Shown here: one piece after another, positions 2,134 to 59,048 of the stretch
Layout of the letters: every line of letters starts with the position of its first letter
Numbering within the stretch: the first letter of the stretch is position 1
The notes under the pieces: model-generated
What the model saw: only the letters and a program-made list of their open reading frames with translations
Databases searched by the model: none
What the model was told of the DNA's origin: nothing
Assembly: GCA_905178155.1 (NCBI GenBank)
Contig: CAJINV010000008.1
Span: 3,229,303 to 3,293,302 of the forward strand
DNA from: Amoebophrya sp. A120
Taxonomy: Eukaryota; Protista; Dinoflagellata
DNA: 64,000 bases
Direction of reading: 5' to 3'
Translations under genes and position numbers: made by a program

Positions 2134-5100
2134 CTAACAAAACCTTAAGTCATGATCAAATAAAGTGCATTCTTCGAGTTTGTACTTCCCCGGCCTTGCT
2201 CCCAGACTGTCCGCGAAGGGGCCGGCGTAGGTTTGGCGAAAAAATTCGTTTTTGTCATCCCATTCGCGCTGCAGCTGCTTCCACACCTCGTCATTTAAAT
2301 CGCTATCCATGATCTCGTCGATTTTCACGTCGTGCTCCCAGTCCGGCCAGAAGTAGGCCTCAAAGTGCACCAGCGGCGGCCCCCCGCCGGCGTTGGGTAA
2401 GCTGCTGCCCTTCAACTCCGTCTTGGCCCCGTCGAAGGTGCGCACCGTCTCCTTATCGAATGCAAATATGTCTGGGTCTGGAAGATTGCGATACCAGTCA
2501 TGCACGTTTTGCATGAGCCATGACGTTTGTGATGCATGCCCTAGCATCACAGATTCTTTGAGGGCTTCTGGATGCCTATTCCGCATGACAAATGCCTTCT
2601 CCGCGTGGCAAGAGTTGCATTCCCTTTGCCGCTCATGCAATACAGATTTTTTTGGAATCCAAATGCAGCATCACAAGTTGCATTCTTCCAGACCCAGACA
2701 GTTTTGCAGTTGATACTCCTCTTTCTCGAACCACTGGTAGCTTTTCGGCTTCGCAAAGTCGTCATCCGGATCCACCTCGACCGGCTTGACCGGCCCCGTG
2801 AACCCTATGGATTGCAAAACCAAATATCGATCTGGGTTGTAAGTACAACAACTATGGACAGTTCGTTGTATATGCTAATTATACCTGCACGATGACAAAG
2901 CAACTACTTAGAGGACGCAGCGAAGCAAGACAGACTGTTAACGTTAAGCGGTCCTGTCGTACAGCGCGTAAAGCGCATGAGGAAATGCGATATTGCATGA
3001 CAGAGAGAAAGAGCCAGTTCTACTTCTTCCGCAACATGCCTTAGACGATCGATCCGGGAGTATGTTGAGACTTCGGCATCAGATAGAATAGAAATCTGGC
3101 ACTCTTCCTCCAGACCCAGCAGACAACATGTTTGCATTTGATAAGGGCCCGGAGCTGCCGATTCTTGGTCAACAAAATGTCGGCAATGTCGAGGGAATAA
3201 CCGCCGAGGTAGTCCGACGAAGTTTCGTCGTCGTCCCACACCTGGATATTCACGGGCCCCTTCGACTCCAGCTCGAGCTTCAGCGCGGTCTGCTTGTACT
3301 TTTTCACTGCCCGCATGGCCGGGAAGACCAGCCGCACCGGGAAGAAGAGTGTGAAGTTGAACACCGGGCGGCAGGTGCGTTTCAGGATGGGGGAAAATTG
3401 CACCATTCCGTCCCACGCGACCCGCAAATAGGGGTCGGACGTGCCGGCGTCGAAGTCCGCCACGGGCAGGTTCTCGCACTTGGAGATCCGCACCACGAGG
3501 TACTGTTCCTTCGACGACAAGTGGGACACCATTCCGCTGCCCTTGGGCTGCTCCGGCCGCTCCTTCACGTCTGTCTCGGGTTGCTTCATGCCCTGCGACA
3601 GCTCCTGAACCTTGATGTTCCCCACCAGCTCCCCCACGCGGAACCGCGTGCGGTCCGTCGTCAGCGCCTTCACCCGCGCCTTGAAGACCGAGATCTCCAG
3701 CACGGACGTCAACCCAAACAGCGCCCGGCCCACCACGGTCCCCGGGAACGATCCGCTGTCGATCCACTCGGGGGGGTTCCCGGTAGAGGAGCTGACGACG
3801 AAGTACTGGTTCTGCAGGTGGGTGCGGGTTCCGGTGAAGGTAAACACGCCGGGCTTCGCCCAAAAAAATTTCCCCTTCTCCTCGTTCCACATCGTGGTCT
3901 TGATCGTGCAAATCTTCTGTCGCTCCGCCTGCCCGTGCCGGGACTTCGGCACGGCGAAGGTCAGCTTGTTCCGCGACTCCTCGGAGTACTTTTTGTACTC
4001 CGGCAGCGTCTCGTCGCACTTGAAGGTCCAGTTGTCGAAGGACATCTGGTATGAACTGCAAAAGTATGGTACTCGTATTCATGCATAAGGTAAATCCGCA
4101 TTACAAATTTTATAGTATTTATTTCTGACGCTGAGTAAATTTGTAATGCATTTATACGAGTACGATGCTTTTGCACTGCATGTCTGGAAGTCAAACACCT
4201 CCTCAATGTTGATGGAGCAGGAGAAGCGGGCAACGTCGTAGGGCTTTTTCTTCTCCAGAATCTCCTGCTTGGACATCTTCTTTTTCAGCATGAAGTCCTG
4301 GTTCATCGACCGCGTCGCGCACTCGTACAGCGTGCGGCTGATGGTGCCGAAGTATTCGTTGAACTGCCAGTTGTTCACCTTCCACAGGTCGATCTGCAAC
4401 TGGTGCTTGTGCAGCTCGGCGTACGCGAGTTTGAACCGCTTGTTTTCGATCACGATCAGCGGCTCCTCCAGGTCGGCGGCTTGTCCCTTGTCGAGCGAGA
4501 ACATCGCCGTGAACACGGGGCGGAGGCTCACCCGCGGAAGCCGCTTCGCGGTGGTGCTGCGAACGCTGATGGCGAAAAAAAACATCATCGCCTTGTTGGT
4601 AACATTCTCGAAGTCCCGGATCTGGAAATTCATTTCCCAGGTGCGCGACCGCTCGTCCGGCGGAATGTACACGCTCGCGTCCCCGCTGCCCCCACCGATC
4701 GTGCGGCGCATGATGGCCAGCCCCGGCGGCCGGGGAATGCGTGGCCGCGGCAGCTTCGGCACCAGCTTCCCCAACTTCGAAGATCCCTTTTTCTTGTTGT
4801 TCGGGTTCGTCCCGCCCGGATCATCCGTTGTTCCCTCCCCGCCGCCGCCCGCCGTGGGACTGTCATTTTCGTGACCACCGTCCTCCCCAGGAACCTCGAC
4901 GGCCACGTCGTCGGGCTTCGGCTCCTATGAAATGCCAATATGTCTGGGTCTGGAAACTTGTGATGCTAAAATGTGCATGATGAAAACACTTCCGAATGCA
5001 GTCCGGCATGACAACTTCCCAAAACGCTTTCTCATAGGCAATCCGCATGAGAAACTGCGTTTTTGCATGACAAAAGAGGCTGCGACTTTTGTTGGTTATG

Positions 5101-5558
5101 CAATACAGATTTTCTAGGTATGGAAAGCTAGCATCACAAGTTCCAACCTTCCAGACCCAGACATTTTTACAATCGATAGCTCCTGCAGGTCCTCCAACTC
5201 CTGCACCTGCTCAGCGCTATGGATGTGTCAGGTTTGAAATCGTCAAAGTTGAAATAGTTTGTCATGCATAAAACGCATACCAGTTAGACCTACAGTTTGT
5301 AGTCGGTGCATGACAAACTTTCCCGGTCCTGGAAGCGAGTCTGTCATGCGGTTTAGGGCAAAAGAGCTGCTTTCTGTCATGCTAGTTAGCAGTCCAACTT
5401 TTGACGCTTACCAGGACTATAATCTGCCTCCCGTGGGTCCTCTGCAATAGAGTCACTTTTTGTGTCGCATTTTATGCATTACAAATTATTTCAACTCTGA
5501 CGATTTCAAACCTGACGCTTCCATAAGCGCCCCCGCCCGCGTCTTTTGGCGGGGCCAT
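2134..5558 (-). CDS. Multi-exon C2-domain protein, 3' end unresolved; five introner-type introns
   Basis: ATG at 5558 (MAPPKDAGGGAEQVQELEDLQEPKPDDVAVEV...). Removing elements 5218-5525, 4926-5178, 4050-4182, 2806-3143 and 2454-2715, each plus 5 nt, gives one continuous frame. C2 domain with acidic loops: YLVVRISKCENLPVADFDAGTSDPYLRV...IQVWDDDETSSDYLG. Confidence 0.85.
2454..2715. mobile_element. Introner family A (inverted repeats, flanking direct repeat CTCCT)
   Basis: TATCGAATGCAAATATGTCTGGGTCTGGAAG...CTTCCAGACCCAGACAGTTTTGCAGTTGATA, with CTCCT at 2449-2453 and 2716-2720. Removal gives WFEKEE|TVRTF. Confidence 0.92.
2806..3143. mobile_element. Introner family A, degenerate, decayed direct repeat
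   Basis: TATGGATTGCAAA...CCAGACCCAG...TTTGCATTTGATA. Flanks AACCC/AGGGC no longer match, but removal of element + 5 nt still keeps the frame. Confidence 0.75.
4050..4182. mobile_element. Introner family B (direct repeat TCTGG)
   Basis: TATGAACTGCAAAAGTATGGTACTCGTAT...ATACGAGTACGATGCTTTTGCACTGCATG, with TCTGG at 4045-4049 and 4183-4187. Removal gives FDFQMSFDNW. Confidence 0.9.
4926..5178. mobile_element. Introner family A (direct repeat GCTCC)
   Basis: TATGAAATGCCAATATGTCTGGGTCTGGAA...TTCCAGACCCAGACATTTTTACAATCGATA, with GCTCC at 4921-4925 and 5179-5183. Removal gives DLQEPKPDD. Confidence 0.9.
5218..5525. mobile_element. Introner family E with about 56-bp inverted repeats (direct repeat AGCGC)
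   Basis: TATGGATGTGTCAGGTTTGAAATCGTCAAAGTTGAAATA... pairs with ...TATTTCAACTCTGACGATTTCAAACCTGACGCTTCCATA. AGCGC at 5213-5217 and 5526-5530. Removal gives DAGGGA|EQVQ. Confidence 0.92.
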
Positions 5559-7887: not shown

Positions 7888-8755
7888 TCATTCGCTATTT
7901 CCCATGTACACAAAGTACCCGATGACGAGCGCGATAATGAGTATGACAATGGGCCCGATGCCGATTCCGCCGCCGCCACCGCCGCCCTCGAGTTCTGATG
8001 TGCGCGGTATCAGTGCTTCTTTCTTCTCCTCCTCGAGGTAACCTGAGGATTATGATATATACGCATAGTTATGTCGATCCCCAACTAAAGAAGCGCGGAC
8101 ATGGTCTGAGCACAGCAGTAAGCACGGCCCTGGAAGAACTTCCGTTGCAGAAAGCAAAAAAAAAACACGTGAACAGAAACTCTACCGATGACTAATCTGT
8201 CGGTCCATTCTCTTGCTGTGTCGGAATGCCCAATATCCTCAAAATCGTCCGTGACATTCTTCCCGGCCAGCGCGAGGATCACCTGATTTTTCGTAATCAA
8301 GCACGTTTGAAAATTTTATCGCGACAAAACCCTGCATCGGCGGATCAGGCAAATTAGATATGCGTCATATACATCAAATAATAAACTGCGCAACTATGAC
8401 TGTTACCTCCGGTCCGCCAGGATGTTCATTTCTCAATTCCTTATTTACGTCGATCACCAGCCCGTGTATTGCGACCTGATAGTCAGTTGTTTTATTTCGT
8501 TTGCATTCTATTGTTGCGCAAGAGTACTTAACTTTCGATCCATCGTGCGGAGCGTCGTGAGTGATGTAGTTGTCACAGGTTTACTTTTATTGTATCAGCA
8601 TGCACATGCAGATGAAGATGCGATTTCAGAAAAATAGAGTAAAAATTGCTTTTCAGTCTTACCCAGCAGTCCTCCTCCGTGTTGTGTTTTGCGAGTTCCT
8701 CTGCCGTGATTAGCCGCCTCTTTGCTATTCTGTCCTCCGGTTTCTGTTGCGTCAT
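7888..8755 (-). CDS. Cytochrome b5, tail-anchored; four exons, three canonical GT-AG introns
   Basis: Exons 8755-8663, 8475-8407, 8282-8186 and 8042-7888 translate to ...ITAEELAKHNTEEDCW|VAIHGLVIDV...EHPGGPE|VILALAGKNVTDDFEDIGHSDTAREW...IG|YL...IGPIVILIIALVIGYFVYMGNSE*. Both heme-ligand motifs (HPGG, GHS) and a C-terminal hydrophobic anchor are present. Confidence 0.93.
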
Positions 8756-10482: not shown

Positions 10483-13400
10483 TCACCCCGCCATCATCAG
10501 CGGCTTCGTGAGTTCCCCGACTACGACTTTTTTCTTTCCTCTGCCCGCGACCTTGCCCAAAGTCGCCGGCGAGGGCGACAGGTTCCGCCACCGGTCTGCG
10601 GGCGACGCAGTGAAGGCGTGCGGGGAGCAGTACAGTTCGGGCGCATCCGTTCGGTAGAGAGGATCATGGGTCAGAGGACTCGTAAAATAAAGGGCGCTAC
10701 TATCATCTTCCACGCGACCTCCCGGGTTGTTGTACTCCACACAGGGGAACCGGACGACGCCCTCGTACGCCAGCTGGCCAAGAATCAGGATCGCAAACCC
10801 GAGCGCCTTATGAACTGCAAAAGTATCGTACTCGTAGTATTGCAACACAAATTAGCTCAGCGTGACAAATGGAATTTCTCATGCTGATCTAGCTTGAAAA
10901 AGAAATTTGTCTTGCATGACTGCGATTAGTACGTGTACGGTACTTTTGCACAGGATACGCCTGCACGGGGCTGTAAACGGTGAGAGGTTCGCCATACTGC
11001 TCCCCCACCGTGTAGTAGAGCACGACCGACGCCACCCAGATGACCAACGTGCGGCTCGCGTCGAGGAAGGTGTGGTGGATAGCCGAGGACTCGGCGGTGA
11101 CCATCAGGCCCAGGATGTTGTACAGAAGCACGGACACGAAGAACGTTCCAATGGCGGCCTGCAGAAATGGCGAGTGCGCGACGGCAAAGAGCGAGTCCTG
11201 CGTGTTCTCGTATTCGCCTCCCGCGTCCACGCCGGGGAGCCTGCTGCAGATCGGCAGCACCAAGAAAATCATCAGACTGGACTATCGTCAGGAAAAATTA
11301 TCGAGTCCCCCCTTTCGTATCATAGTGCGCAGGTGTACTACTGCTGAACTACGTTTGCAAGGTTGATTTGATGTGGCCACAAATCGTATCCGCCTTGCAA
11401 GAAGCAGGCACCTCCACAGGAACAAGCTACTCCGCATTTATCACAACAGCATGCTGTTGGGCCCAAAGCGCGGCCACTTTGTTGTTATCGACTATTAAGC
11501 GCCCACACTCATCAAAGCCTCCACACAGCTAAGGCCTAGGACATGCCTGCAATCTCGCTCCTACTGCAAAACAAATTTTTACACGCATTTCATCCAGCAT
11601 AAGCAGCAACTCTGCTTTGAACATGAGGAGGGGGGATATTTCATTCTGATATGGACCCCCAGAACCCCTCGAGCCCGACAATCGCCATCGGGGTGACGTT
11701 GTGCGGCGGCCGCAGCAGGTACTCTTCGATTACATACTGGGCTGAGCAAACGACTTGCCCAAGGAGAATCAGGGCGATACCTGAACAGATGAAGTAAGCC
11801 TTCGGCCTCGGCGGAACAACATCGCAAGTAATAAATTCATCTAGCTGCAAAAGAGTGTATCTACACTACAGACTCATGGCGCAGGTTCGAAACTATTGAT
11901 GTCCTAGTACTGATTTTCACACCTATCAGCTGCGTCGTAGTTCCCTGTTTTGGCACGGCCTGTTGTTGTTCCGTGGCCTCCATCACTCCGCCTGCTCCTT
12001 GTCCCTCTTGCGCTGCCGCGGCCAAGACGGAGGACACACCCACCAGGGACAGAGCGAGGAGGCAGAGCAGAATCCCGATCCAGTTATAGGTGGTCAGCCG
12101 CTTCTCGAGGAACCAAACGCTCAGAAACGCGGAGAACAGGAGGATGCTGCCCTTCAGCATCTGGAACACGGACACGGTGGTGACACAGAGGCCCATTTGC
12201 TGCAAGCTGGTCCCCAACAAATCACAGATAGACGGAACGATCAGGGCAAAGAAAAGCTTGGCCGTGACGGGGTCGTATTGGTGGAGATCCACATGACTAT
12301 GATCTTCCTCGGTAGTGGTAGTTCTTGCGCCGTCGGCACTTTCGTCGAGGAGAGGGACAAAGTGTTGAGCAACATAATTACCAAATATAGCCGCCGGGGC
12401 GGAGGTAGTGAGGTCGTGGGCGTTTTCTTGCCGGCCATCGCCTTGGCCGCGGCTTTGCTTTTTCTGGGCTCGCCATACCGCCGTGAGTAACGTTAGGCCG
12501 CACGGTATGGCGGCCGCTTGATAAACGTCGCAAATTTTGACAAATTCCGAAATTCCTTTCCGAAGGCCAGCCCCCATGCTATGGGGCCGATCCGGGTGCC
12601 ACGGGGGGCGCCCAAAAAGCGAAGAAAAATCGGGCCCATAGCATGCGGATTGGCATTGCGCGTCTTCGGCGCTTTTTCTTTTTCGCGTTTTTATTTTTCA
12701 CGCCGGCGCTTTTTGCAAAGCTTCCCAGGCTCTGAAACCGGCGAAAAGGCGGCCGCTTTCGCGGCCGCCCAAAATGCTCCGAAATCGCGGCCGCGCCATG
12801 CTGTTTCGCTGTTCTGATTTTGGGCGCGTTTTTTGCGCGCCCCTTTTTGGGCGCCCCAAATCGCCAGAAACTAAGGCGGCGGGCGCCTCAAAAGGGCGCC
12901 CCTTTTGCCGGCTCCCCAGCGTCGTTTTATCCAGTGCGAATCGATAGAATTGGCTCGGGCTTGTTTGACAACAAAGCCCCGGCCGCTTGATAATTGAAAA
13001 TTTTTTATGTCCAAAAACGCTTCCGCCCGCCTGAAAACTGGCGGCCGTTTTGCTGTCTGGCTGTCAAAAAAACTCCCTGGTTAGAACCGTTCGGTGACCT
13101 CACTACATATGAGTCTCCTCGTCTGGGTTGGATGCGAGATTCAGTTTTGAGGTCGCGAGTGCCAAATTTCCATTATGTTCATCTCCGCTCGTCGCGGCCC
13201 AGATTTTTGTAGCTGTCCCGGATGAATGAAGACTTTGATTTTCTCTTCTCCGCAGAGCCTCCTGCTTGAAGCGTTGGTAGAAATGGAGCCCGTAATAGAC
13301 GGGCAGGGCGACCAAACAGGCCAGAAACATCACAGTTGAGAAAAACCATGGCTTCTGAAACTGCTCTTCCGAACCGTCCTGGGCTAAGACGCTGGTCTGG

Positions 13401-14418: not shown

Positions 14419-17400
14419 TCACAACTCGTCTTTGGTGCCAGCCGCCGCTCCACTACCCACGCCTCCGCCGGCCGCCGCACCGCCGCCACTGTCGAGCGAA
14501 GAATCCACCCCGCGGCCCATGTGCGTCTCCACGAACTGGATCAACGTGTCGAGGTTTCGATCCCCCACGTAGTGCACGGAGTGGTCGGTCGACTTCCGAT
14601 ACAGCTTCAAAGTCGGGTAGCCCTGGATCACCTCCTCCACCTCCAGGGGCAAGTCGTTTATGGTGGCGTCAAACTTGGCGATCAAAACACCGGACCCCGG
14701 GACGTTGTACTTTGCAGCCAGGTCCTTGTAGATGGGCTCCAACTTTTTGCAGTGCCCGCACCAAGGGGCGTAATACTTTACCAGTACGTACTGATTATGG
14801 TTCAGGATCGTATCCAGAAAGTGCTCGCCGGTGAGTGTGAAAATCGCTCCCTGGTCCTTCGGATTGTTCTTGGGCGCGTGCTGCGACTTCAGATGCGGTT
14901 TAGCCGCGCCATTCAGAAAGTCCTCCGCGAACTGCTCAATTTTCTCCGGCGTGATCGCCTTTGCGTTGCGCAGGTAGTTCAGATCATTGGACATGTCCTC
15001 GCTTTGATCGCAAGAAAAAACTGTTTCACTGTCGTGAACGTGAATGTGTAATGGATAGAATGGAGCACAAAGTGATTTGACCTGCTACTGCACCTGCAAA
15101 AAGCACTGGATTTTTAAGCGCGTTTTCCATTGCTGGAATGAAGCGCCGCGCATGGCAAATTTATTTCCGTGTCATGTGTAGCAAACATACATGTGAAGAT
15201 GCAGATCTTGCAATAAAATCATCACAGTGAGTAAACAGTTTTTTCTCACGATCATAGCTTTCGGCAGCCAACTCCTCTTCCGTGGCCTCCGGGGGCATAG
15301 GCAGCTTGTACTTCACCATGCCGTCGGTGGGATCCTTGATGATGCGGATGCAGGGTAAATCCTCGTAGTCCACCGAAATGTAGTCCATCAAACGCATGTC
15401 CATGGGCTGCTCCGCGCCGGCGAAGGTGACGACAAAGTCCTGTTTGTACTTCGTCGCGAGGCTGTGAAGCGAGTCCTCGATGAGTTGATTTTTCTCCCGG
15501 ATCTCCGCATGCAGATTCTGTTCCGTCGTCGCGATATCCGGCCGCTTCTCGTCGCGTAAGTACAGCAGCAGGGGCCGCGGGTCGTTGAAAAGCAGCGCCG
15601 CGTTTTCCCCCGTAAAGACGTTAACTTTTGGCATCGAGTAAATCGCCACAAAAAATCGCACGTCATCAGCGACCCTGAGCGTTGTTCGAAAATAAAAGCG
15701 TGATGTGAAAATGTTGAAACTCAGAATTATTGAGATGAGTGACCTTGTTTCGCGGGTCTTAGCTACAACACAAGTGACGACATGCAAAAAAGCAAGGCAA
15801 ACGCACTTACCGGAGGACAGAGCATCACCAACAGCGCCAGTACAACTCATAGTACGAGCTGCTGGTTATTAATTTCTCGCAACTCGAAACATTTCAGTCT
15901 ATGATATCATGTTTAATTATCAGGCCAAAAAACCAAATAGAATCTATACGTAATCAATGTCAAGCAGCATCAGAATCTACATCATCTTCAGGAAACATAC
16001 CGTTCCCAATATTCCGGATGCTCCTTCCCCATGCCCACTGCATCCGGTGTCACGATTGGGGCAACCGACTCCCCCTCATCGAAGGGGAACCGCATGTAAA
16101 CCACGTCCCCGGCGGAAACGTCAACCTTGAGTGTGTGCGAGTGGTTCGTTATCGTTCTTCTTGTCGTGCATGACAAGTTAGAATTCGTTTTCAACCTCAA
16201 GTGCCACTATATCATAATCATGCGCATTTCTGCATTAAACAACCTGAACGTGGACTGTTGGTCGACGTGGCATTTCGATTTTTTTTTCTTCTCCATTCCA
16301 TAGATATGAGAGAGAGGAAGAAAAAGAAAAACAAAAACATGTACTTAGCTCTTCTTCAAGAACATCAATAATAAATATGAACACCTTTGGCACTTCTTTG
16401 ACTTCTGATTCCTGATCGGCAACGGCCTGCGCACGAAGTATCGTCTCCGGTTTAACCACCTCTTTGTACAGAGAGTTTGGGGCGATTCCAAAAAAAATAT
16501 ATGCATTGCAAATACGGAGTCGGGATTCATTTGATGTCATTTTTACGCAGATTTCTGTAAATGAAGTTAGTATCTATGTGGCTGCGCATTTAGATGTATC
16601 TTGTGCTAGTACCGAAGTAAATCTCATTCCTAGTCTTGACCTTCATGGCACAGCGATGCACACGTCGATCCTGTGTAATGCAAGATAAAAAGTGGGGTCA
16701 TGCTCCAAGTACTACCGTTCTCGATCTAGCATGCAAGAATCTGGAAATCAAGTTCCGGTCTTTCATGATCCAGCAGACCCAGACATATTTGCATTTGATA
16801 AAATGTCGTCGAAAGCCACGCCCACTTCCTGCAACACTTTTTCTTTCTCCGGGTCATATGCACAGAAAAATTTTGCTCGCGTTTATTGTATGCTTCTACT
16901 TTTTAATTTTATTTGCTGCATTTTTACTTGATGCCGGTGCGCAGCTAGAGCGGTCCGAAATAGAGGCCCGTCATCTTGATGCGTAGCTAGCACGTGAAAA
17001 CACGTTCCTTGAAAACACGTTTTCCCTGTGGTGCATACTTACGATCCGGCATGAAAAGCGTAATAGTTTTGCATAGTCTACAACACGACTGCATAGTTAC
17101 ACTTACGCAAAAAACTTTCTTTTTGATAGATCATCGCAGAATGCCACTATCACGCCGCCTCCAATCACGGCGGAAGTTCCTGCAAGTTTAATCTTTTTTC
17201 ATCGAATGATAGTATAAACAACAGAGGCAATCAGGACCGGCTCCGTCAACGTCATCAGTAAAAGTGAAGTCTGGACGACACGCTGTTTTGTCATGGAGCA
17301 CCGTTATGTGACAGTGTATAAAATTGGCAGAAAACACAAGGGGACTGAATCAATTCTACCCGTCGGCGTGGCTTCGTGGGCTTTTGCTTGGAAGAAAACC

Positions 17401-19007: not shown

Positions 19008-19080
19008 TGGATGGATGGACCATATATCACATCGTGCTGTCATTGGATGGATGGACCATGAAATCAATCGTGCTGTCATT
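19008..19080. repeat. Tandem duplication of about 36 bp
   Basis: Two adjacent copies of TGGATGGATGGACCAT...ATCGTGCTGTCAT. Confidence 0.8.
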
Positions 19081-24880: not shown

Positions 24881-27800
24881 TTACGAAATTGTGCAGCGGA
24901 ATTGGAGAGACGAAAATCCTTTTTCCCCGCATATGTTCATCAGGTCTTCCGCACCCAAGCCGTCTTGCTCTAGAGGGCCAGTTCCCCCCTTGCTCTTCGA
25001 TTTTTCCAGTTTTTTCTTTGCGCGGTTGCCGTATCTCTTTCCGGCTTTATTCGGTCCCTCTTGTTCTCCTTCTCCCTCAACATCTTCAGACCCGAGGCAG
25101 CAAAAAGCCCAGACGCACAACAAAATCGTCACCAAGGCCAGCACGGACGAACCGATCACGATCCCCATCGCTTTCCAGGTGAGCGCACCAAGGCAGCTCT
25201 CACTGTCATCAGCGTCGTCCTCGTTCGTGTCTTCAGTGGTCCCATTGGTTGTAGCGGAGCTCCTTCCCAGTTCTTGTTCAGAAGTCCTCTCGTTAATACG
25301 CCCGCTCCCTGCTTGCCCCGTCGAATTCTTGTCCGACGCAGGGAATTGATCGAAAAACAAATCGACGTTTGTGTAGTCGGGCAAGGGGTGGGTCCCTCCG
25401 CCCTGGCCAGGACCACCTCCCGGCGCATTAATCTCCTCCGCTACCCCAGGAGGTGTTGATCCACCTGAGAAAGTAGTTGTAGTTCTACTTTTGGTCTTCA
25501 CAATATAGGGGTGCGCGGTCGTAACCGCAGTCCGTCCCGACCACTCGCAGCCGACTAAAGGAATCTCTGTTATTTTGGAGGTAGAGTTGATGTGCCCCGG
25601 CCCCTCAGTGGCCGCGAAATAGTTCTGCCACCGCATGGTGCAGGGCCGCTGCTCTTTCACCACATCTTCCAGCGCGATGTCCAATCGGACCCACTCTCCG
25701 AGGGCAATGCGGCCCGTACGCGCAAGGCGAATTTGGTTGCCCCACGTGTTGAAGGGTAGGAGTATGAAAATGAAAAATGATCCCACCCTCCCCATAGATA
25801 GTACTCAACTGGAACATTGGCGTCCTGTGATAATTCGGGTACTACTCAAATCAGCTCTGTCTTGCACCAAAGAAGCACATGTCTTCGTTCGGTCTGCGAC
25901 CTTTTTGCGTGTGTACTGTCGTCTAGTAGTGGCTGAGACCCACGGCCGAAGTCGTGTCTGCTCTAGGCTAGTAGAACGCATTAACACAGATTGCCGAAAA
26001 TGCAAGATGTGCATTGAAGCTTGTGCTTCTTGTGCATGCAATGCAGAGCTTTTTTAATGGCCAAATCCAGCATCAGACACCCCCGTTTCTTGGTGAAAGA
26101 ACATCCGGAGGGGGGACTTATTTTCCTCGCGATACGGAGAGCCGCTTCGTCTTCGACGATTTGCTTTTGGAGATCGTCTTGCCGGTCCTGATTAATATCG
26201 CTTTCTGTTCCACCTCCGAGGTTCGTGTCCTGCAGCTCTCCTCCATTTATTCCCGCTCGGGCTGCACCACCAGCTGCGTCCTTATCCATTTTTTCGCTCT
26301 CTTCGTCCTCGTGTGCGGTCACTACTAAGACAACGCAGGACCCTTCCAAGGCGTCCCACAACTGAAAGAGTCCAGACTTGGAGTTCGCACTGCCATCCGC
26401 CCTCCAGTCCCAGGTCGGTATGCCCCGAAAAAGGATGATGACCGCAAGAGTTCGTACAGTGTATGATAATTTCAGTAGCTAAGCCAACATGAACAACATG
26501 ACGAGTGAAGTCGGATGAAAAATATTTGGAAGGTATTTTTCAAAATTTGCAAGAATGCAATTCACGACGCCTGATCGTATCTATAATGCGATCTATCATC
26601 CTTGTGCCGGGCGTAGACCTGTACCGGAGCAAATTATGGAGAAAAACCACCGCATACCTTGGCTTGCTTTCGTGCCCACCTTCTTCTCCAGTACTACAGG
26701 TTTCCGCAAGTTGCTGCTTCAGCCACGTTGCGCTGGAGGCCAGCTGGTTTAGGCTGTGACAGTCCTTCCAAGATAAACTACTTCCAGTGCCGGTACTTGT
26801 TTCCTCATCTTGCGCGGCGATTTTGTCCAGGCTATCGGTGCTGCTTTCGCCACACTGCTGATATCCTCCCGCCATGTAGTCGTCGCGGCACGTGTCCTTA
26901 TACTTGGACATCAAGGAACTGCTCGCGTCCTCTACTTTGCCGCAGGCTTGCTCGATTTCGGATCGATTTTCCGTGTACTCGCTTCCGAGACGCAGGCAAT
27001 CTTTCTTCGCCCGGAAAAGCTCCTCGCACACGCCTATCAAATGCAAAAATGTCTGGGTCTGGAAGATTTCTAGATTTGTCATGCATATTTTCCACGACCC
27101 ATGATGTCTGTGATGCATGCCGTAGCATCATAGATCTTTAGAGGGCCTTGTGATACCTCTACCGCATGAGAAATGCCCTCTCCACGCAGGACAAACCCGA
27201 CCCCTCTTGCTGCTCATGCAATACAGATTTTTTCAGAATCCAGAGATAGCATCACAACTTACATCCTTCCAGACCCAGATGACATTTTTGCAGTTGATAA
27301 CGCCGTCAAACGCCGGGTGCTCGTGTATCAAAGTGAAAAATCCCCCCTCCCCATATTGAAACGGAAACTTCTGTTGCTGGGCGTGTGTACACAAATCAGC
27401 CCTGTATTGCAGTGAGGCACTACAGGGCATAGCCTCAGCCTGCTTAGGGGCGTTTTGTTGTAGGCGCTCAGCATAGCAGAGGCCTGCGATGTTGGTGAAA
27501 CAGCATTACAAATCGCCTCCAGAAGGCGGCGGGTTCTTTGGATTTGCCTTCTTGCAAGAGAGACAGGATTTGTGGTCACAAATCAGCATCACAAATTTTT
27601 AGGAGCATACCTTTTCAATGTGGGGAGGGGGGATTTTTCCTCACAGTATCGTGCAGCGCGAAGAACCGCACCCGGTGGTTTCGCATCACTGAGAAGGCGT
27701 ACGCAGCGGAAAACTTGTCGAAAGCATCGACGGTTCCGCCCTGCGAGACCGCCCGCGGGAACCGGTCACTCACCAGATCCTCCGGCTTCGCCGCGCTCTG

Positions 27801-35300: not shown

Positions 35301-38300
35301 GAAAACCTGCGCGACCCTCTCGACGTCCGTTTCCGTGCTGTTCATGACTTCGTAAAGCCTCGCCCGACAGGACTTCAAGATCGACGCACCCGTAATGGAG
35401 GAAGCAGCTGCTCCACCTCCGCCCACATAGGAACTGATATCGCCCCCCGTGCTTGCTGTTTTCCTGGTTCGCATAGCAGCACTATCTTCAACAGCAGCTG
35501 TTGTTGTGGAAGATCCACCTCGCAGTAGATCTCCCAGGATCTCCGACCCCGCAGAGCTCGTTCGCCGCTCGGTTACATTTTTGCTGGCCACAGCGACAGC
35601 GGATGTGGCTGCGGAGGAGGACGAGGAGGACATCGGCGCGCCTAGTATTCTGCCCCCCTGACGATCCGCGGGTGCAGAGGATGAAGGCCCCATTCCGATG
35701 CTCCGCACGTAGGCAACGGCGGTTTGCGCAATGCTGCCACACACGTTGAGCAGAGACTTGGTAAACACCGCTGCGGTGGAAAGCTGACAGCCGTCGTGGG
35801 TTATCCTGAGTAAACAAGTCTCCACCCGACCATAGTTGCCATGCAGATTTGCATCTACGTAGATCTGTGTCTGTAATGCGCATGATCCGCATGAGAAGAG
35901 TTTGTAGTCGTGTTCTGGGAGTTAGGACAAGCAGGCGTCTTTGTGTTCATGCCGCTCTCCTTTCATGTAACCAGCACCCAACTGGGCCCGATGCAAACTT
36001 GTCATGCACCACTCCCAAAATTTCGAGATTTGCGCTGCATATTTTTTACCAACTCGACAATCGCGTGGGGATGTTCTTACGCAGGGTATCGGTGATCTTC
36101 AAGTCAAACTGGTGTCTGTACTGCGTTTGCAGCACGTGAATGTCCTCGCCCTTGTAGGATTCCGTCCGCATCTTCTTCCCGAGCAGCGTCGCCTGCTGCT
36201 CGCCGTGCTCGGTCAGCTGCCCGCCCGACTTCAGGACGATCAGAATTTTCTTCTCCTCCAGGTCGTGCAGCTTCAGTTTGATCTTCAGGTTCAGATTCTC
36301 GGCGGAGAAGCGGCGCGTCGGAAAATAATTCTCCTGCAGCAGCTTCACGATCTGCTCCAGGTGCTTCCGATCTTTCGAGAGCAACTTGTAGCTTTTTCTC
36401 ACAACAGAAGAAAAAGTAGAAGAAGCCCCTTCTCCTCGCCCAGCCGTCGCTGATTCGTCTTCTTGCTGCTGCTCCTGCCCAGCTGCTTTAATATCGCCCC
36501 CCATTGGAGAGTGTTGCTGGTTTGATGGCTCCACCTCTGTTTCCGATTCCGTCTGCATGTTCAAAACCCCGCCCGATTCGCCATTTTTAAGTAAGTTCCC
36601 CGCCAGGTAGTTCGATTCGAGTCTGGCTGAAGTCTGAGAGGATCCAGCGGACCGCAGAGCCCGGTCTTGCTCCAGTATTTCCTGCAAAATCTTCAGAACC
36701 TGCTCGAATTCGGCTCGGTTCTGCAACGTGACATCCTCCGGTCGTTCGGTCGGTTTCCTACTTTGCTCTGCTGCTGCTGGTGGGTGATGTTTATTGTTCT
36801 TCTGCTCTCCGGACCCGTTTGGTGGCTGTCCTTCCTGTAGATCACTCTGCGCAGCAGAGGATGGAGACTGAGGCCCCATTGTCTTTACACCTCCAGGTTC
36901 TCTTGTGTCGACGGACGTGGCAGCTGGTGAAGACGGACCCTGGCAGCTGACCTGCTCTCTCGCCGTGTTTTCCTCTGATGCGCCGGACCCTGGCAGTTGC
37001 CGGTGTTGACTACTACTACTCGCCGCGTGGTCCACCACACCAGAAACATTCGCGAAAAACTGTTCTAGGAGTCTTTGACTGTAGACGAAAGCCTTCAACT
37101 TCTCCCGCGGCGTCGACTCCGCGGCCCGAAGACACCCGAGAATCGCGACAATCTGGTCCTCTACCTCTGGGGGGTCCTCGGGCTGAGTGTTCCAAATTGA
37201 CTTCTTCACGTCTACGCGACTTTTCGCCGTCATAAATGTGCTGGAGGTGGTGTCCTCGATTTGGTCCTCTGCACCTCGTCGTCCACGTTCTTCGCCCATG
37301 TTATTGTGCTGGGCAACTGCACTCTTCTTCTCCGTTGTTGTTTCCTCCGAAGATGACAACTCTCCGGTCGACGGAACCTCAACAGTGGGACTGTAGTTCT
37401 TCATCGCATTTTTCGTCCGCTGCACAAACTCGTCGGCCTGCAGGTTCAGAAAGGAGCTCGCTTCGTGAAAGTGCAGCGTTTTCGGAATCTGGATCTCATG
37501 CTGCATTTGAACCGACTCCTTGGAAAAGAAATCGAAGTCGGTGTTCACCTCGGGATAACTTTTACTACTTGATGATTTTCTAGCACTAAACGGAGATGGC
37601 CGCGCTCCTGCGGTAGTTTCTTGTTCATCTGCAAGATAAACATCAGGATTGTCATGGCCGTCCCTCCTTGTAGTTCTTCTGTCGAGCTGTTGCAAGCTGA
37701 AGAAGTACTCCTCTCGGTACTTCTTCTGGGTCGCGATCCGGCGCAGCATCTGCGAGAGCACAAAGGCGCAATCACGAAAGTAGCCGGGCCTCTTCTTGAC
37801 GAAGCTCAAGCCGTTGACGTCCACCACGACGGTGCCCTTGGTGGGCGTCCGGAGCAGGTCGATCCCGCAAATCGTTTGTTTGAACGCCAGCACGGTGTTC
37901 TTCACGATGTTCTTTTCTTCTTGCGTCAAAATGATCGGGTACCGCAGCTCCTTTGTGGTCTTTTTGGATGTTGTCGTGGGTGTGGTACTAGCTGCTGCAG
38001 CAGTTGCTGTCGCAGGAACAACCCCCGCTGCTCGTGGCCCACCACCTGCCACTGGTGCTGGTATCTTTAAGCCGGCTTGGCTGCTGGAGGTCGTCTCGAC
38101 CTCGCTTGTTGTAGTTTCCTGTTTAATATTTTTTCCTGGTGTGGTCATGGAGGAAGATGAAGTAGTTCTTGCAGACGAGGTGGTCTTAGTTGGCACGACA
38201 ACCTTCACGTCCTCCACCAGGTCGACAAATCCGTCCACGACCGGCGCCTTCCGCGCCTCGGCGTACGCATAATTCGTTCCCACGGCGTACACTTTCAGAT

Positions 38301-40505
38301 CCACGCCCGAGGTGTGGTAGAAAGGCTCGTACAGGTAGCATCCGTCCTTCCGGATCGAGTACGTCGCGGACGATGCGCCCGCCGTACCACTATCGTGATT
38401 GCGAGCAATGCTCGCATGTAGCTGCTCTTGTAGTTGACTTGTACTCGCCTCCGAGTTGCTGGAGTCCTTGCGAGGCTGAGCATCAAGATGGCCGCTTTCC
38501 CCCGGCCCCGCCCCCGCGCTTTTTCTGCTACCGCCCTCCGTTAGTGTTATCCTAGATAGGTGTTTGGAGCTGCGCATGACGCCATCAATCTTCTGCTTCC
38601 GGAAGATCTTCGTGATGCCGCCCCCGTAGGAGGTTTGGGGGTAGTACACGTTGATATCGTGGTTCTCCGCCGAAAGAGGCTTCTCAACGAAGGGCTTCTT
38701 CAGCCGTCGCCCCTCAAACTCGATCCAGTCCTCCTCCTCGACGAGACTAGTACTGTAGTGGCCTTCTTGTTCTTTCCCTGCTTTCCGTAGCTGTTCGTGG
38801 TCGATACACAAGAAGTCGGGGCACGGGATGTTGTTTCGCTGCAACGTTTCGTAGACAAATTTGCGCGAGAGCAGCGGTTCCTGAAAACTGACGTCGTTCA
38901 AACACACCGGTCGCCGGAGTCGGATGTAGTGCAAACACTTCTGATATCCTGTGTAAAATAAACGTCCTCGTCCTCCCACATTCGTCATGCAAAGTGTTTC
39001 TGTCATGCGCAGCGGCCACCGAATTATGAGAGTGCAGCTTTTCAATGCTATAATCCGAGAGCTGGTCAACATGCTAGCATCAGAAAAAGCTGATCGATTT
39101 GCTCTCATGCGGCTGTACTCGCTAATAAAGCACACGATTGCATGGAACGAGGCAAAACTTGTGGTGCGCAACAGCCGAAATTGTTTGATTTGTGTAGCAC
39201 GGATCGTCCCATCTTCGCTCTAGTAGGTTGTAGGGTGGAGACTTTTTTACGTGGGATATCTGAATCGGAAAACCGTGGGTGTGAAAAGCGATCAGAAAAT
39301 CAACCACCGGCCACTCTTCCACCGGTTTGTTTAAAATGCAGCCGCTGTCACGCAGAAAAAAAACTACCACATCTTCACGCTTGTAAACAAAAACCGGATC
39401 CAATAGCATTATGCTCTTTTCGGTAGATCATTTCATTGTGTATTGCTACGTAACAGCATCCATTTTTTTTGCGCATCCGTGCAAAAGTGATGTGCTTATT
39501 TTTTTCTGCGCGATAGTCGTCCCCGAATATGACCGTCTCAATTGTCCAACACTCTTCGTCGAAGGGTGCTGCTGCACCCTTCGCTTTCCCATGATCTTCT
39601 GCTCCGTCCTTGGCGGCAGCGGCCAACGTGGTTCCGGGTCGGATCAACATTTCTGGGCGGGGGGGATTGAACCTCTGCAATTCCAGCAGAATGGCCTGCA
39701 TGCTGTCCCCGTACACCTTCCGATCCCGGCTGCAAATCCCCAGCGTGATGATCCTTTGTTTGTCGGACCTTCCATCTTGCAGCGTCGGTGCTGGATTTGC
39801 TGCTTTTTTCTCGGGCGTTTTAATATTTCCTTCGCCGTGCGCATGATCCTCACCTTGCTTATCACCTTGTTCCCTTCCAGCTGCAACGGATGCAGGATTT
39901 TTACGGCCTGACGCCTCGTCCCCCAGCTGCGGCCCTCCTTGTCGAAGAGGTTCTTGAGCGAAATTTTTTTCGTTTGTCGTGCCCGCCGCGCGAACATGTT
40001 TCGGCGTCGTCGTTTCAATAGCCGTGTCAAATAAGTTCCTTTCCTCGTAGTACTTTTCCACCACGCCGGCGGAAGTAGAAGAGGAAATGGACAATGAATT
40101 TCGCTGCGTCGTGGTTCCCGCAGGTGCAGCAGGAGCCACGACTTTATTTCTTGTCGCAGAAGCTGCATTTTTGACTTGATTGCCAACTGGTAGGGAAAAC
40201 CGTTCTGCCGCTCGTGTGCCGTGCGAATCAGAAGAAAGCTCTTGCGTGGAGGTGCTAGTGCCCGCGCCGCGGCCCGGGGTGGAAGCTACACGACTGGCGG
40301 AAGTAGTTTCTTGGTGGTGCTGCTCCTCCCCAAGCGGAAATGAATCATCTGGAGCTAACGGCGGAGATATTGCGTTCCGGTTGTGCTGACCATCGTTTTT
40401 ATTTCTCGCGAACGACGACGCTTCGGATCCAGAATCATACTCCTCCTCAGGATCAGATTCAGGGGTCCTCGAAAATGAAGACCCTTTGCTCTCGCCCTGA
40501 CCCAT
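32384..40505 (-). CDS. VIP1: PPIP5K/Vip1/Asp1-like inositol pyrophosphate kinase with degenerate histidine-phosphatase domain
   Basis: ATP-grasp kinase motifs IFGDD-ILNKPVEEWP, AFHTHGFP, KPFVEKP, DLKVYAVG, AEARKAPVVDG, ELRYPIIL, AFKQTICGIDLLR, DVNGLSFVK. C-terminal motifs LKSGGQLT, TAAVFTKSLL, TSLYFT, VEFSPG. Many low-complexity insertions. First in-frame ATG at 40505. Confidence 0.92.
38945..39258. mobile_element. Introner in PPIP5K (direct repeat TCTGA)
   Basis: TATCCTGTGTAAAA...TTTTTACGTGGGATA, with TCTGA at 38940-38944 and 39259-39263. Removal restores GFPIQKCLHYIRLRRP. Confidence 0.9.
39346..39515. mobile_element. Introner family D in PPIP5K (direct repeat GCCGC/GTCGT)
   Basis: TGTCACGCAGAAAAAAA...TTTTTTTCTGCGCGATA. 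Removal + 5 nt restores VIFGDDCILNKP. Confidence 0.85.
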
Positions 40506-44617: not shown

Positions 44618-47600
44618 TCACATCGTCCCGCAGGGCGGCAGCTCAGTCGGGTGCGGTCTGTAGTAGCCCGGACCGAATTCTCCACGGTACGGCCGGCCAT
44701 GCGCGTCCACATCTTCTGCCTTGGGAACGCTATAATCGTCGGCCTCGCGGCTTTCGGTTTCACTGACGGCAGGAGGTGAAAATGAATTTCCTTTGCCGCG
44801 GGGGCACAGATCTTTTGACAACGACTTCACCGATGCCCCGCTGTTGCTGCTTCCGCCAAAACTGCTCTCTAGGCTTCTGCTACTGATCGTGCTGTCAGCT
44901 TCTGAATACAGGTCATCCTCATCGACGTCGTCGTCGTCGCCCGGCGCACTGGCACTGCCGCGGTCCTCCTCGGGTGGTCCGGGGCTCGTGTTGCGACTGA
45001 AAATGCCGCAAAAATGGGGCGGGTGCGATGACCCGTCAAGATCTTGCGGCTCACCAGCACCATCTGCAGGCGGACGTAGTGATTTCTGTTCCGCCTCGTC
45101 CTCTGCAGAGTAGGCGTGCGGCACCGTGTGCCGCGGCGGGTTCATCTTGCAACCTCCCACCCTTTCCTGGGCGGAGTCGTTGCTTTTATGGAAAAGCATG
45201 TGCGCTCTTCCGTCATCACACGTGAAAAAATCCTCGAAAGATTTCTCTTCTCCGAAGCCATCGCCTGTCATTTTCGGGTTGTCGGCACCCCCGCAGCCAC
45301 ATCCACACAGGGTTTTATTTAATAGCGGTGTACTTGTTCCACTTCGTGGAGACGCAGAGCTGTCATCGTGTTCCCTTCCTCCTTATCCCAGAGAAAAAAG
45401 CTGGCAGGGCATATTTGTAAGAGCGGGGTAACAAACCTCCCATAAGAAGTTACCGGCTAACTTCTCATCCACCCGGCCGGGTGGATGAGAAGTTAGCCTC
45501 AGCGAGCCCGTCCGCGGTTGCTACCCCTTTCCCCGTCCGGCTCGCGCCCGTCCGTCGTTCCCATTCCCAGATCTGAAGCCATTTGGAAAAAAGTGCTATC
45601 AAAAAGCCTTGCGCTCTGATCCTTTTCGGGCGTGCACTCCCTTCAGGTTCTATAGCTTCGGCAGTGCTGAGAGCGCTCCGGCCCTAAACCTCAAGACGGA
45701 TGTCAAGAGGTCTACGCACGTATGCGCGCGAGTAGTTGGCTGCGAGTTAAACCTATGCACTTTCCCCCCTGGTTACTTCGTGTTGGTTGGTTTGGTTGCG
45801 AGTTAAACCAGACTCGCAAGGGGGGAAAATGCATATCAACCAAACCAACCAACACGAAGGAACCAGGGGGGGAAAATGCATATCAAGCAAATGCTACTTA
45901 CTTTTACATGCATGCTAGAGACTCTAGGAGTAGAAATGCGTAGCAAATGCTACTTCCTTGGAGAGATATCGCGAATTACAACTTTTGCGCGCATATATTA
46001 AAGTGCTCAATTCCTTTTACATGTGCTCACCCCCCCCCCCCTCCAGCCGAGATCTGGGAATGGGAACGACGGACGGGCGCGGCGAGCCCGACGGGGAAGC
46101 CGGTAGCAACCGCGGACGGGCTCGCTGAGGCTAACTTCTCATCCACCCGGCCGGGTGGATGAGAAGTTAGCCGGTAACTTCTTATGGCAGGTTTGTTACC
46201 CCGCTCTAATGCAAAAATAAATACACAGAAAAATTTGTCATGGGTGGCCCCATAGCATGCTGTTTTGGATATGCAATACAGATTTTTTTGTGTATTTATT
46301 TTCGCATTACAAATATGCCCTGCCAGCTTTTTTCTGTGTGATACTCCTCCAGCACCACTTTCATTTTCAGCTTCAACTTTTTCGTCCTCGCGGATCATTT
46401 TTTCTATGCCGGGATGCATTCCCTCGCCCCGCCTGGCCGCCCGGGCCGTGTGCCACTCCTCATCCGTCAAGAAGCGCGCCAGTTCGGCCTCGCTCAGCGG
46501 CGCGAGATGCGCGAGCGGGGGAGGAAGAGGGGACAGCTGCCGTACCAGAGCCGGACTGTTGCAGCACGTGCAGGAATCTTGTTGTACCTGTGACGCTTCA
46601 CCATCTTCACATGGTCCGCCTACAACTTCTAGGCCACTTCCACTATTGTTCCCTAGTTGTACTACCCTTTGTTGAAATTTCTTGCCACAGACCGGGCAAA
46701 AATGCTCCAGAGTCTCCTCGTCCTCGACCACGGTCTCAGGCAGGCTGTCCGCAGAATCAGACCGCTTGTCACGCAGGCCGCTAGTAGAGATCATGCCAGA
46801 GCTCTTCGTCTGTCCGTGGTCTTCTGCCTGCGAGGTCACCGAGGAGGAAGAACTGCTAGGACCGGAGGTGGACGATGACCCGCCGCTGGACTTCCGTTCC
46901 ACCTCCATTTCGACGTCGCGCCCTATCGTCCCGCCACCGGACAACTTCTCGTGTGCTTCTGCGTCCTCCTCGTCCGAAGCGTGTTCCTTTTGTCCCTCGA
47001 GTACTATTGGCAGTCTCTCGTCACACAAAGACTGCTTCAATTGCCGATTGTAGTGGTTCAGCAACACCGCCTGCGTCTCCTTCGTGATGTTTTTAAACCC
47101 GTGCTTCCCGCTATCGTGTGTAAAACCATATTTTAATCCATTTTCCCAAAGTCAAGAACAAAAAGTTGGAATTTCTGCATTAGCCAAGTTCAGAAGTTTC
47201 GGCACTCCTCATGAATGACAAGTGATCCTCGTCTGGGCACATATTGTAGTACTGGTTAGGTAGTGCAGTAGCATCGCAAAAATAAAGCTGGCGCCTTATC
47301 CTGTTTTACGCAGCAATTCGATTGGTTCCAAATGCCATCAAAAGACCATATACAACATGATAAACTCGCCGCTAGGCGTCGTCGGCATGTGTTTCTGTAT
47401 GACCAAAAAAGTGGGATCAGCATGAATACGTCTACGTTTTTACACCGGACGATACCTACCCAGCAGCGCCTTCGCTCGCGCCCGGGTTGTGCTCGGACAC
47501 GACGCACGCGGAAGTACCATATTGGCATCATCATGCTCGACCGCGTTCTTGAGGGCTTTCTGGCGTTCTCTTTGCGTGGTGAACTGGTTCCACCGCTTCG

Positions 47601-57577: not shown

Positions 57578-58734
57578 GCTAGTACCGATGGGACGAAAGA
57601 GTAATACTAGACCAGGATTTCAGAAGATGATCATTGAAGACACAAGTCCAGCGAGTATTGAATCATGCTGAAGATGAACCCACAGACTTCAAACACGCAC
57701 CCTTCCCGCGGTAGCGCGAAGATCATGCTCTTGTAGTTCATCGGCTGCAGGCACTTCTTATGATGGTGCCATTCGTGGCCGTCTCTGCCCTATGTGTCTC
57801 TCAGGAGCAGGAAATGGACCACAGAGTATCAGGGCAACCTCTTACGTTTCATCATTCCCGTCCGGGATCACTGCGAGCGGGGCAGCGGAGCCCGCTTCAC
57901 TAAGGCCGTGCGCCGCCTTCGATCCGCATGGAAATGCAAAAACCCGCAATCGAGGAAATAGAAATACGAGCTTGTCGTGTGCGTAAAAAATGCAGCACTA
58001 CTTAAAGAAGTACAAAGCTTCTAAATGAAGACCCTAATAAAACTACCGAGGGACACCTGCAGCTGCTTCTGGTTCAACTTCATTCATAATCATAACAAGA
58101 AGATCTTCAGCTGCATGACCCGATGCAACGACAGCTCGGGCTCGTCCCTGGTACGCAGCACGACAAGTTGCACCAAAAATAAAATATGCGAGTTCAATTA
58201 GTATCTATCTGCAGCACTGAGCTGCAGCACGTGTTTCTCGTCCTCTACACCTACGACTTTTCAGCACGTGATACTTGATCCATCTGTTCGTTGTTTGCGG
58301 AAGGCTCCAGTATGCATGGCGCAAGTCGTATCGTCGGAATTGCAATTTATTATCACTCTCGAGGTCGAGGCTTTCCTCTCAAATTATTACGTCCATGAAT
58401 GAAAGCAAGGCAGATGCTGCATCACAGGTGGTTCTTCCTATGATCATCGATGGTCTCCAGTGCTGTCACAGCCGGAGCAAGATGAGCTCGGAGGTCATGA
58501 TCTTCCCAACGAGCAGCGAAGATTCGCTGACAACTACAACAAGATAGGTACTTATAATTTTTCGCTTGCGTCATTTTCTGCTACAGATGCTCGTCATCAA
58601 AGTGTTCGAGCAGGCAAAAGAATTTCTATTCCGCTCAGGCTCAACATCTTCTCGCGGTGCTCACAATAAGACTTTTGTGCACAGCATACTGCTCGGCTCT
58701 GCTTGGTCCCTCGGAGTTGGTACCGAACGCGCCA

Positions 58735-59048
58735 TTTCAAAAGGAAAAAATCCCCCCTCCCCATATCGAAAACGAAACTTGTGATGCTGTATATGAGTAG
58801 ACAAATCGACTTGTATTGCTAGACGGCCAAGAGCCGCAGCTGTGGCCTCGTTTGCAGGCAATTTTCCATGCTGTTCCCCACTTCCACCTGCCTCCTGCCA
58901 TGCTGAAGATGCAAGGCTTTCCCACGCAGCCCAGCACTACAGTCCGCATCTTTTCTCTTCTAGCATGACTAAGCTGATTTGTGACCACAAATCTACATCA
59001 CAGATTTCCGTTTTGATGTGGGGAGGGGGAATTTTTGTTATCTTGATA
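58735..59048. mobile_element. Introner family C (direct repeat CGCCA)
   Basis: Same AAAAATCCCCCCTCCCCATAT / ATGTGGGGAGGGGGAATTTTT inverted repeats as 27326. CGCCA at 58730-58734 and 59049-59053. Host reading frame not established. Confidence 0.88.

Follow-up and report, generated by a model that had tools for sequence, protein, structure and literature searches.

Introduction

The genome of the dinoflagellate Amoebophrya sp. A120 was reported to hold 1,954 introner families with 29,850 members, which carry inverted repeats consisting of TAT, seven bases and at least three A, are flanked by direct repeats of 3–5 nt (a 5-bp example is given in the legend of Fig. S19) and are non-canonical introns supported by RNA sequencing (RNA-seq) (Farhat 2021, PMC7789003). 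That report describes splice sites whose place with respect to the hairpin varies and calls the border position unknown; the A120 splicing machinery retained U2, U4, U5, U6 and 83 of 89 spliceosomal proteins, with U1 not detected. Here we analyse a 64-kb stretch of this genome (64,000 nt of contig CAJINV010000008.1; hereafter the window), in which an initial annotation made from the sequence alone had identified 16 TAT...ATA hairpin elements with 5-bp flanking duplications and proposed that they behave as precise non-canonical introns. These elements are published A120 introners. The annotation itself stated that the class was not new, in agreement with the TAT start, the 5-bp repeat example and the RNA support in Farhat 2021, and its novelty was rated too highly in view of these features and of a lead towards an integrase-like enzyme in a later survey (Gozashti 2025, PMC12130899). 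Earlier work is cited throughout from the accessible parts of each source.

That survey lists A120 introner family 38 as 'Ginger, 5-bp TSD, TA/TA Termini' (TSD, target-site duplication) with Copia/Gypsy-like open reading frames (ORFs), and the text of the same paper presents family 38 without Ginger homology, termini or duplications; for other A120 families, among the first 40 of 58 rows, the automated duplications range from 2 to 6 bp (PMC12130899). Class 12 introners of Polarella glacialis have a 5-nt duplication, where the donor can be formed by the last duplicated base and the first base of the element and the acceptor lies at duplication positions 3–4 (bioRxiv 10.1101/2020.10.14.339549). 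Beyond introners in the strict sense, euglenid nonconventional introns have inverted repeats and leave as full-length circles through a machine described as unknown, and transposon-derived non-canonical introns of Fritillaria favour AG-AC/AG-AT ends and are spliced by the spliceosome (review PMC11282704).

Elements of the window and their loss from RNA-like contigs

All 16 starts given by the initial annotation coincided with element ends (Table 1; elements are named by their start positions). TAT[CG] was found at 27 of the 32 ends and the 5-bp flank duplication was exact in 12 of the 16 elements; the copies differ at one base in 16500 and in 16857, at two in 39346 and at three in 2806. The profile of 24 window ends read TAT, seven bases, AAA, and a scan without any motif prior gave eight matches at duplication length 5, six of which begin with TAT. 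The window contains seven exact TAT[CG]..[CG]ATA pairs whose flanks repeat exactly over 5 bp and whose inverted-repeat score is at least 5, compared with a mean of 0.48 and a maximum of 3 over 100 Markov shuffles; when the inverted-repeat score was disregarded there were 10 pairs versus a shuffle mean of 3.3 and a maximum of 6. The 16 elements are confirmed, and the set proved incomplete, as three more elements (25763, 26419 and 35802) have RNA joints and four further candidates were found. In 26419 and 35802, the ends that begin with TAC were placed by their match to the opposite end, the left ends having been flagged before the RNA comparison and the right ends set after the joint had been seen. 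Several element families are present, the same families recur in a related assembly, and a thousands-fold depth of the DNA-like run X5 on element ends indicated genome-wide repetition. In host, in ends of TAT, seven bases and AAA, in a direct repeat within 3–5 nt and in repeated families, the window elements agree with A120 introners.

Contigs of runs X1–X4, from two samples of one study, behave as spliced RNA. None of the runs that contain the stretch is recorded as RNA, and the RNA status of X1–X4 was a tool's guess that is backed by the loss of canonical introns: three GT-AG introns at 8043–8662 were gone from X1 and X2 (166 nt between pieces, as computed) and the canonical intron 34776–35106 was gone from X2 and X3 (joint 34774>35106). 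In one contig comparison all seven element joints, among eight joints listed, corresponded to the loss of exactly the element plus 5 nt; four of these seven were marked 'between: not known' (27035, 27326, 38945 and 39346), with a short side of 21 nt at 27035 and 27326. Across the neighbouring elements 4926 and 5218 the comparison with X1–X4 left 34 nt, as expected if each loses element plus 5, only the sum being visible. Loss from RNA-like contigs therefore covers seven of the 16 initially annotated elements (five singly, two as a sum) and the three further ones, with one-sided support at 2806, 10809 and 15006; there were no joints for 2454, 11283, 16500 and 16857 among the RNA-like joints listed, and the comparison covered the region short of 45384, 47112 and 58735. 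The proposal of precise non-canonical introns that leave as element plus 5 nt is borne out by these joints, and removal at non-GT-AG borders is again a trait of A120 introners.

The host reading frames gave the same result. Deletion of element plus 5 nt produced stop-free minus-strand frames of 704, 284, 396, 906, 1361 and 1352 codons that contain the motifs quoted in the initial annotation, which had also rightly left 58735 without a convincing host frame. Across the two PPIP5K elements the PPIP5K2_N profile was matched in order at positions 1–28 (E = 0.11, weak), 39–65 (E = 1.7e-9) and 69–88 (E = 0.24, weak). The exon at 14422–15000 was 100% identical to Amoebophrya sp. A120 protein P0001 (193 residues; protein disulfide isomerase, PDI) and the exon at 3146–4042 to A120 protein P0121 (299 residues; C2-domain gene), and the annotated A120 proteins have element plus 5 removed at three PDI and five C2-gene junctions. 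The contig and annotation lines of evidence are not fully independent, because X1–X4 may underlie the annotation. Orthologues from A25 were collinear at the junctions inspected, including 16500 and 16857, except at 15006, which falls within an 8-residue gap.

Table 1. Introners and candidate introners of the window (positions on the forward strand; k, bases of the upstream flank copy kept in the exon; 'extra', outside the initial set of 16)
Element	Position	Length (bp)	Flanking duplication	Host gene or remark	Removal evidence
Introner, family 1	2454..2715	262	exact 5 bp	minus-strand C2-domain (CEP76-like) gene	annotated A120 protein P0121 has element + 5 removed; no joint among RNA-like joints listed
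Introner, family 1	2806..3143	338	2/5 identical	informative, k = 4 or 5	RNA-like contigs retain upstream flank through 3144, 0 other letters (one-sided); LTG in both A120 annotation and A25 orthologue
Introner	4050..4182	133	exact	one variant end	X1, X2 contigs skip 4045-4182 = 138 nt
Introner, family 1	4926..5178	253	exact		RNA-like loss seen as sum with 5218
Introner	5218..5525	308	exact		RNA-like loss seen as sum with 4926
Introner	10809..10957	149	exact	transporter-like gene	X2 piece ends 10803 (one side)
Introner	11283..11651	369	exact		no joint among RNA-like joints listed
Introner	15006..15256	251	exact	protein disulfide isomerase	P0001 gap 256 nt = 251 + 5; RNA-like pieces end at 15000 (one side)
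Introner	16500..16800	301	1 mismatch	no AG option	P0001 gap 306 nt
Introner	16857..17128	272	1 mismatch	no AG option	P0001 gap 277 nt
Introner, extra	25763..26134	372	mismatch at sense position 5	informative, k <=4	joint 25758>26136 skips 377 nt, X1 and X4 (one sample)
Introner, extra	26419..26615	197	2/5 identical	informative, k = 4 or 5	joint 26413>26616 skips 202 nt, X1 and X4
Introner, family 1	27035..27299	265	exact		joint skips 270 nt, X1 and X4
Introner	27326..27648	323	exact	no AG option	joint skips 328 nt, X1 and X4
Introner, extra	35802..36088	287	1 mismatch	informative, k = 4 or 5	joint 35796>36089 skips 292 nt, X2 and X3
Introner	38945..39258	314	exact	PPIP5K	joint skips 319 nt, X3
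Introner	39346..39515	170	2 mismatches	PPIP5K; k of 4–6 allowed (informative); AG at k = 1 unused	joint 39339>39515 skips 175 nt, X2 and X3
Introner	45384..46343	960	exact	no ORF >105 codons	
Candidate introner, extra	47112..47454	343	2 mismatches		removal + 5 nt joins 1352-codon frame
Introner	58735..59048	314	exact	same family as 27326; no convincing host frame	
Candidate introner	61361..61575		1 mismatch		
Candidate introner	62074..62447		2 mismatches		
Candidate introner	62861..63105		1 mismatch	GT-AG in k = 4 register	

Strong hairpins between direct repeats are also the setting in which reverse transcriptase is known to switch templates, and the joints could in principle be artefacts of that kind. 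The joints were exact where the flanks are only 2/5 or 3/5 identical, and frames conserved with the A25 orthologues open only after removal (PDI and PPIP5K in the window, Rpb1 in the related assembly), which makes this explanation scarcely credible. Excision at the DNA level at some life stage, as for the internal eliminated sequences of ciliates, would account for transposon-like ends and scarless loss. Against it, DNA-like X5 contigs run through 2806, 11283, 15006 and 16857 and to the far end of 16500 at a depth of 27–30, equal to that of unique sequence, and the asymmetric retention of flank copies tracks the strand of transcription at each of the five informative junctions, all of them in minus-strand genes; we regard DNA excision as highly improbable. 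A raw RNA run (X8) placed approximately 130 reads at 90–95% identity on the element end 5129–5178, with one unrelated flank; these reads may come from another locus or strain in which a related element is kept in RNA, and the run is uninformative on splicing here because it covers no host exon.

The cut register

An exact duplication lets the cut slide within the repeat and a mismatched one fixes it, and the position can be expressed as k, the number of bases of the upstream flank copy that are kept in the exon. Contig sequence allowed k of 0–4 at 25763, 4–5 at 26419, 35802 and 2806, and 4–6 at 39346; at 2806 the value follows from the piece kept through 3144 together with the residues LTG, which are conserved in A25. 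The single value that fits all five informative junctions is k = 4, where the intron starts 1 nt before TAT and ends 4 nt after ATA, and its ends at these junctions read GT-CC, CT-GA, AT-CC, CT-GG and TT-GT. A fixed register with an intron of the form N-TAT...ATA-NNNN is, in our judgement, quite probable. All nine 'predominant' A120 motifs in Table S4 of the genome paper have T at +2 (PMC7789003), which is compatible with this register and aligner-dependent; neither this table nor the splice-site counts of Gozashti 2025 were used as proof of register, because placement within an exact repeat is the aligner's choice.

Removal was exactly element plus 5 nt with flanks that are 2/5 identical (26419) and 3/5 identical (39346). 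The flank repeat thus need not be identical, as the exact removal at 26419 demonstrates, and both junctions speak against the earlier suggestion that the direct repeat guides removal. It is likely that symmetric terminal signals do so instead.

With respect to dinucleotides, a scarless GT-AG option was available in none of the 16 initially annotated elements, as had been claimed for the cases checked earlier, although in-frame GT..AG pairs lie within 12 nt of the ends in eight. A sliding option that ends in AG exists in 12 and is absent from four, so the list of exclusively AG-ended options given earlier is a subset. It is on these 12 elements, and on the rule of AG co-option from the duplication in Micromonas and Polarella, that an explanation by classical introner splicing with a relaxed donor would rest, and an AG-acceptor rule was considered on the same grounds. 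The available AG at k = 1 went unused at 39346 and 2806 (excluded by contig sequence at 39346, and on the 5' side at 2806), and 27326, 25763, 26419 and 35802 were removed without AG at any allowed position. Combined with counts from 157 oriented elements of the related assembly, where any AG option was possible in only 77 and GT-AG in only 10, the contig joints led to the rejection of the AG rule and leave AG co-option very unlikely. The window introners accordingly lack the AG acceptor, carried or co-opted, of Micromonas, Aureococcus and Polarella introners. The view that removal is not guided by splice dinucleotides was correct in that neither GT-AG nor AG is required, with the qualification that in the best register intron position +2 is the element's own T.

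A larger sample from a related assembly

At least 146 loci (492 kb) were retrieved by the family-1 end pattern, all from one assembly (JACKZZ01 contigs), and family 1 is over-represented in this sample by design. Window families were found at about 66–89% identity. Among 280 end pairs chosen blind to their flanks, 218 had an exact 5-bp repeat and 259 a 5-bp repeat with at most one mismatch, compared with one exact 4-bp repeat and no 6-bp repeat, and 202 of the 223 exact repeats from all 362 pairs were distinct. Taken with the window families, these counts uphold the proposal that the terminus and the length of the duplication are common to several families. The position of mismatches within the duplication was flat (12, 9, 8, 10 and 12) and uninformative.

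Host strand was assigned by a codon model, in which adjacent calls agreed in 49 of 51 cases, and independently called frames needed an offset of 2 modulo 3 in 44 of 45. The AG counts refer to 157 exact-flank elements that passed the strand filter, of 283 scored: AG at k = 4 occurred in 14 against a background of 7% and was not enriched, and the 77 elements with any AG option compare with 63 on the antisense strand. The largest family was oriented 58:58 relative to host sense, without significant bias in any other family; an orientation bias suggested by family 1 in the window, where four of four are alike, was rejected on this count. The elements showed no target bias and occur in both orientations. 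Even orientation and the lack of AG enrichment indicate a removal signal that is located in the element ends and is symmetric with respect to strand.

One of these loci (L066, 1140–5995) holds an RNA polymerase II Rpb1 gene interrupted by elements, including one of 972 bp with an exact 5-bp duplication.

Possible mechanisms of removal

The observations comprise the elements themselves, the 5-bp rule, the loss of element plus 5 nt and the fact that neither identical flanks nor AG are needed. The explanation we favour, to which we give a little better than an even chance, is that these A120 introners were likely inserted in trans by an integrase-like transposase and are likely removed by a relaxed host spliceosome. 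According to this proposal an integrase-like DDE enzyme would make a staggered 5-bp cut and insert the element, and the relaxed spliceosome would cut 1 base before TAT and 4 bases after ATA. The 5' end, N|UAU[GC], would resemble a GUAUGU donor (a canonical PDI intron in the window has a GTATGT donor), and the 3' end would consist of a U-tract followed by [GC]AUA; since each end is the reverse complement of the other, the same splice signals would be presented in both orientations. The branch point would be an A located 7 bases upstream of the 3' cut, with the cut measured from this A, and AG would therefore be dispensable. Paired ends would hold the two sites close to each other and substitute for U1 snRNA, and as removal would restore the pre-insertion message, an exon could accept insertions at any position.

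Mean end-pairing probability was predicted to exceed 0.5 in 18 of 20 window elements, and the two elements whose folds were compared with expectation gave z values of −4.4 (10809) and −4.0 (26419). The terminal four pairs were predicted to be open (P <0.5) in 8 of the 20, and the ends of 16857 were not predicted to pair. RNA pairing, which the initial annotation had proposed as a guide together with the repeat, and terminal sequence are both candidates for the removal signal.

The same register could also be produced without a spliceosome, by a protein endonuclease that reads the base of the terminal hairpin and cuts both strands with a stagger, 1 nt away at the 5' end and 4 nt away at the 3' end, followed by an RNA ligase that joins the exons. 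This is a possible but clearly less probable reading, of the kind proposed for euglenid nonconventional introns; those with inverted repeats leave as full-length circles (PMC11282704). It would account for the absence of orientation bias (58:58), for the dispensability of both AG and GT, for the predicted pairing of ends with z about −4 in two elements, and for the failure to detect U1 in A120 (PMC7789003). Its difficulties are that the terminal pairs are often predicted open and the ends of 16857 unpaired, that the register puts U at +2 and so matches the geometry of spliceosomal Polarella introners, that no candidate enzyme was identified, and that G-U was not favoured over A-C on the sense strand of the related assembly (130 vs 146).

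The last of these also counts against spliceosomal removal aided by end pairing, and several further points weigh against that explanation. A motif of the type yUnAy, the branch-point consensus, was present at the proposed branch site in only 91 of 218 elements, and the ends CT..GA, TT..GT and CT..GG have neither canonical dinucleotide. All five informative junctions lie in minus-strand genes of one window and come from two samples of one study; only 25763 (two runs, one sample) rules out k = 5, which would place the cut directly at TAT, and there the G before TAT creates a GT donor and may make this junction a special case. Splicing in the related assembly is deduced from reading frames, and the spliceosome, the lariat and the branch point are all putative. 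Among 136 long ORFs scanned in the 492 kb (of 139; three of the longest were left out) none matched a transposase or integrase family, and no element longer than 972 bp with matched flanks was credible.

The discovery of the elements is not news; for their mode of removal five junctions now provide a testable rule. We consider it an evenly balanced question whether a single ruler, encoded symmetrically by the transposon ends and set at 1 nt before TAT and 4 nt after ATA, governs A120 introns in their tens of thousands, whatever their orientation and target, scarlessly and with neither a G at +1 nor AG, by way of a U1-less spliceosome or a new nuclease-ligase system. If true, the rule would settle the border position left unknown by the A120 genome paper and would explain how a transposon can fill the exons of essential genes without target choice. 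A fixed register predicts the first and last intron base, a candidate branch A and the flank copy that survives.

Proposed insertion enzyme

Insertion by an integrase-like transposase acting in trans is likely, and the proposed route is a staggered 5-bp cut made by a Ginger/IS3EU-like DDE enzyme. A single mobilising enzyme for all families, as suggested by the initial annotation, is a possibility. The elements of the window contain no integrase-like DDE transposase, and the search for long elements with a DDE or integrase-type ORF that the initial annotation had recommended found nothing in the window and the 492 kb. Both IS3EU (TA..TA termini) and IS481EU (TNT..AYA termini) have integrase-related DDE enzymes, with duplications that are usually 6 bp in IS3EU/GingerRoot and about 4, 15 or 25 bp in IS481EU (PMC10045372). 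The A120 elements resemble these groups in their TA..TA or TNT..AYA termini and differ in the 5-bp duplication. Membership of IS3EU/GingerRoot is not claimed, because those elements usually make 6-bp duplications, which were found in 0 of the 280 end pairs as opposed to 218 of 5 bp.

Other features of the window

Every host gene identified is encoded on the minus strand (window 2137–63880), which agrees with reports of unidirectional gene clusters in Amoebophrya. At 1–1840 the window contains the end of a Copia-like retrotransposon with an RVT_2 match and a purine tract (1828–1838) followed by TG; a second frame (890–1483), which from its motifs we take to be RNase H, gave no Pfam match. P0121 matches down to 2182 and has a further ~630 residues outside the window, so that this retrotransposon end apparently lies within an intron of the C2-domain gene. 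The intron after the last C2-gene exon (2170–2185, minus strand) begins with neither GT nor TAT and may represent a further non-canonical class.

The longest element, 45384–46343, contains a 126-nt inverted pair, a 44-nt perfect palindrome present twice and a family-1-like inner stretch, and has a relative at locus L002; its inner inverted repeats suggest nested insertions. Candidate 62861 has its AG in the downstream but not in the upstream flank copy, and this element is possibly drifting towards canonical ends. A search for the annotated protein of the window's last gene, from which k at 62074 and 62861 could be read, gave two weak matches only. A different repeat without TAT ends lies at 12430–13110, with thousands-fold X5 depth and an 82% match in L066. 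No Rfam match was obtained in the window.

Comparison with known introners and introns

In the literature searched (including PMC11453091, PMC12787238 and PMC13326754) a fixed register, a dispensable repeat and orientation symmetry were not found for A120, although the figures of Farhat 2021, further family rows of Gozashti 2025, the final Current Biology paper and subscription journals may contain them. Euglenid and Fritillaria introns are like those of A120 in being transposon-derived, with inverted repeats, duplication-like flanks and no GT-AG. Polarella class 12 introners have in one of their modes the same geometry as k = 4, but require G and AG, depend on NNAGG or NAGGH targets and function in a single orientation. 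Within A120, family 38 of Gozashti 2025 differs in its ORFs, as no window element carries such an ORF. The closest match is with the introners of Farhat 2021, which come from the same strain, as two 100% protein matches indicate, and share the TAT motif and the repeats; compared with that description, the window has a duplication of 5 bp throughout at the TAT/ATA ends and an apparently fixed register.

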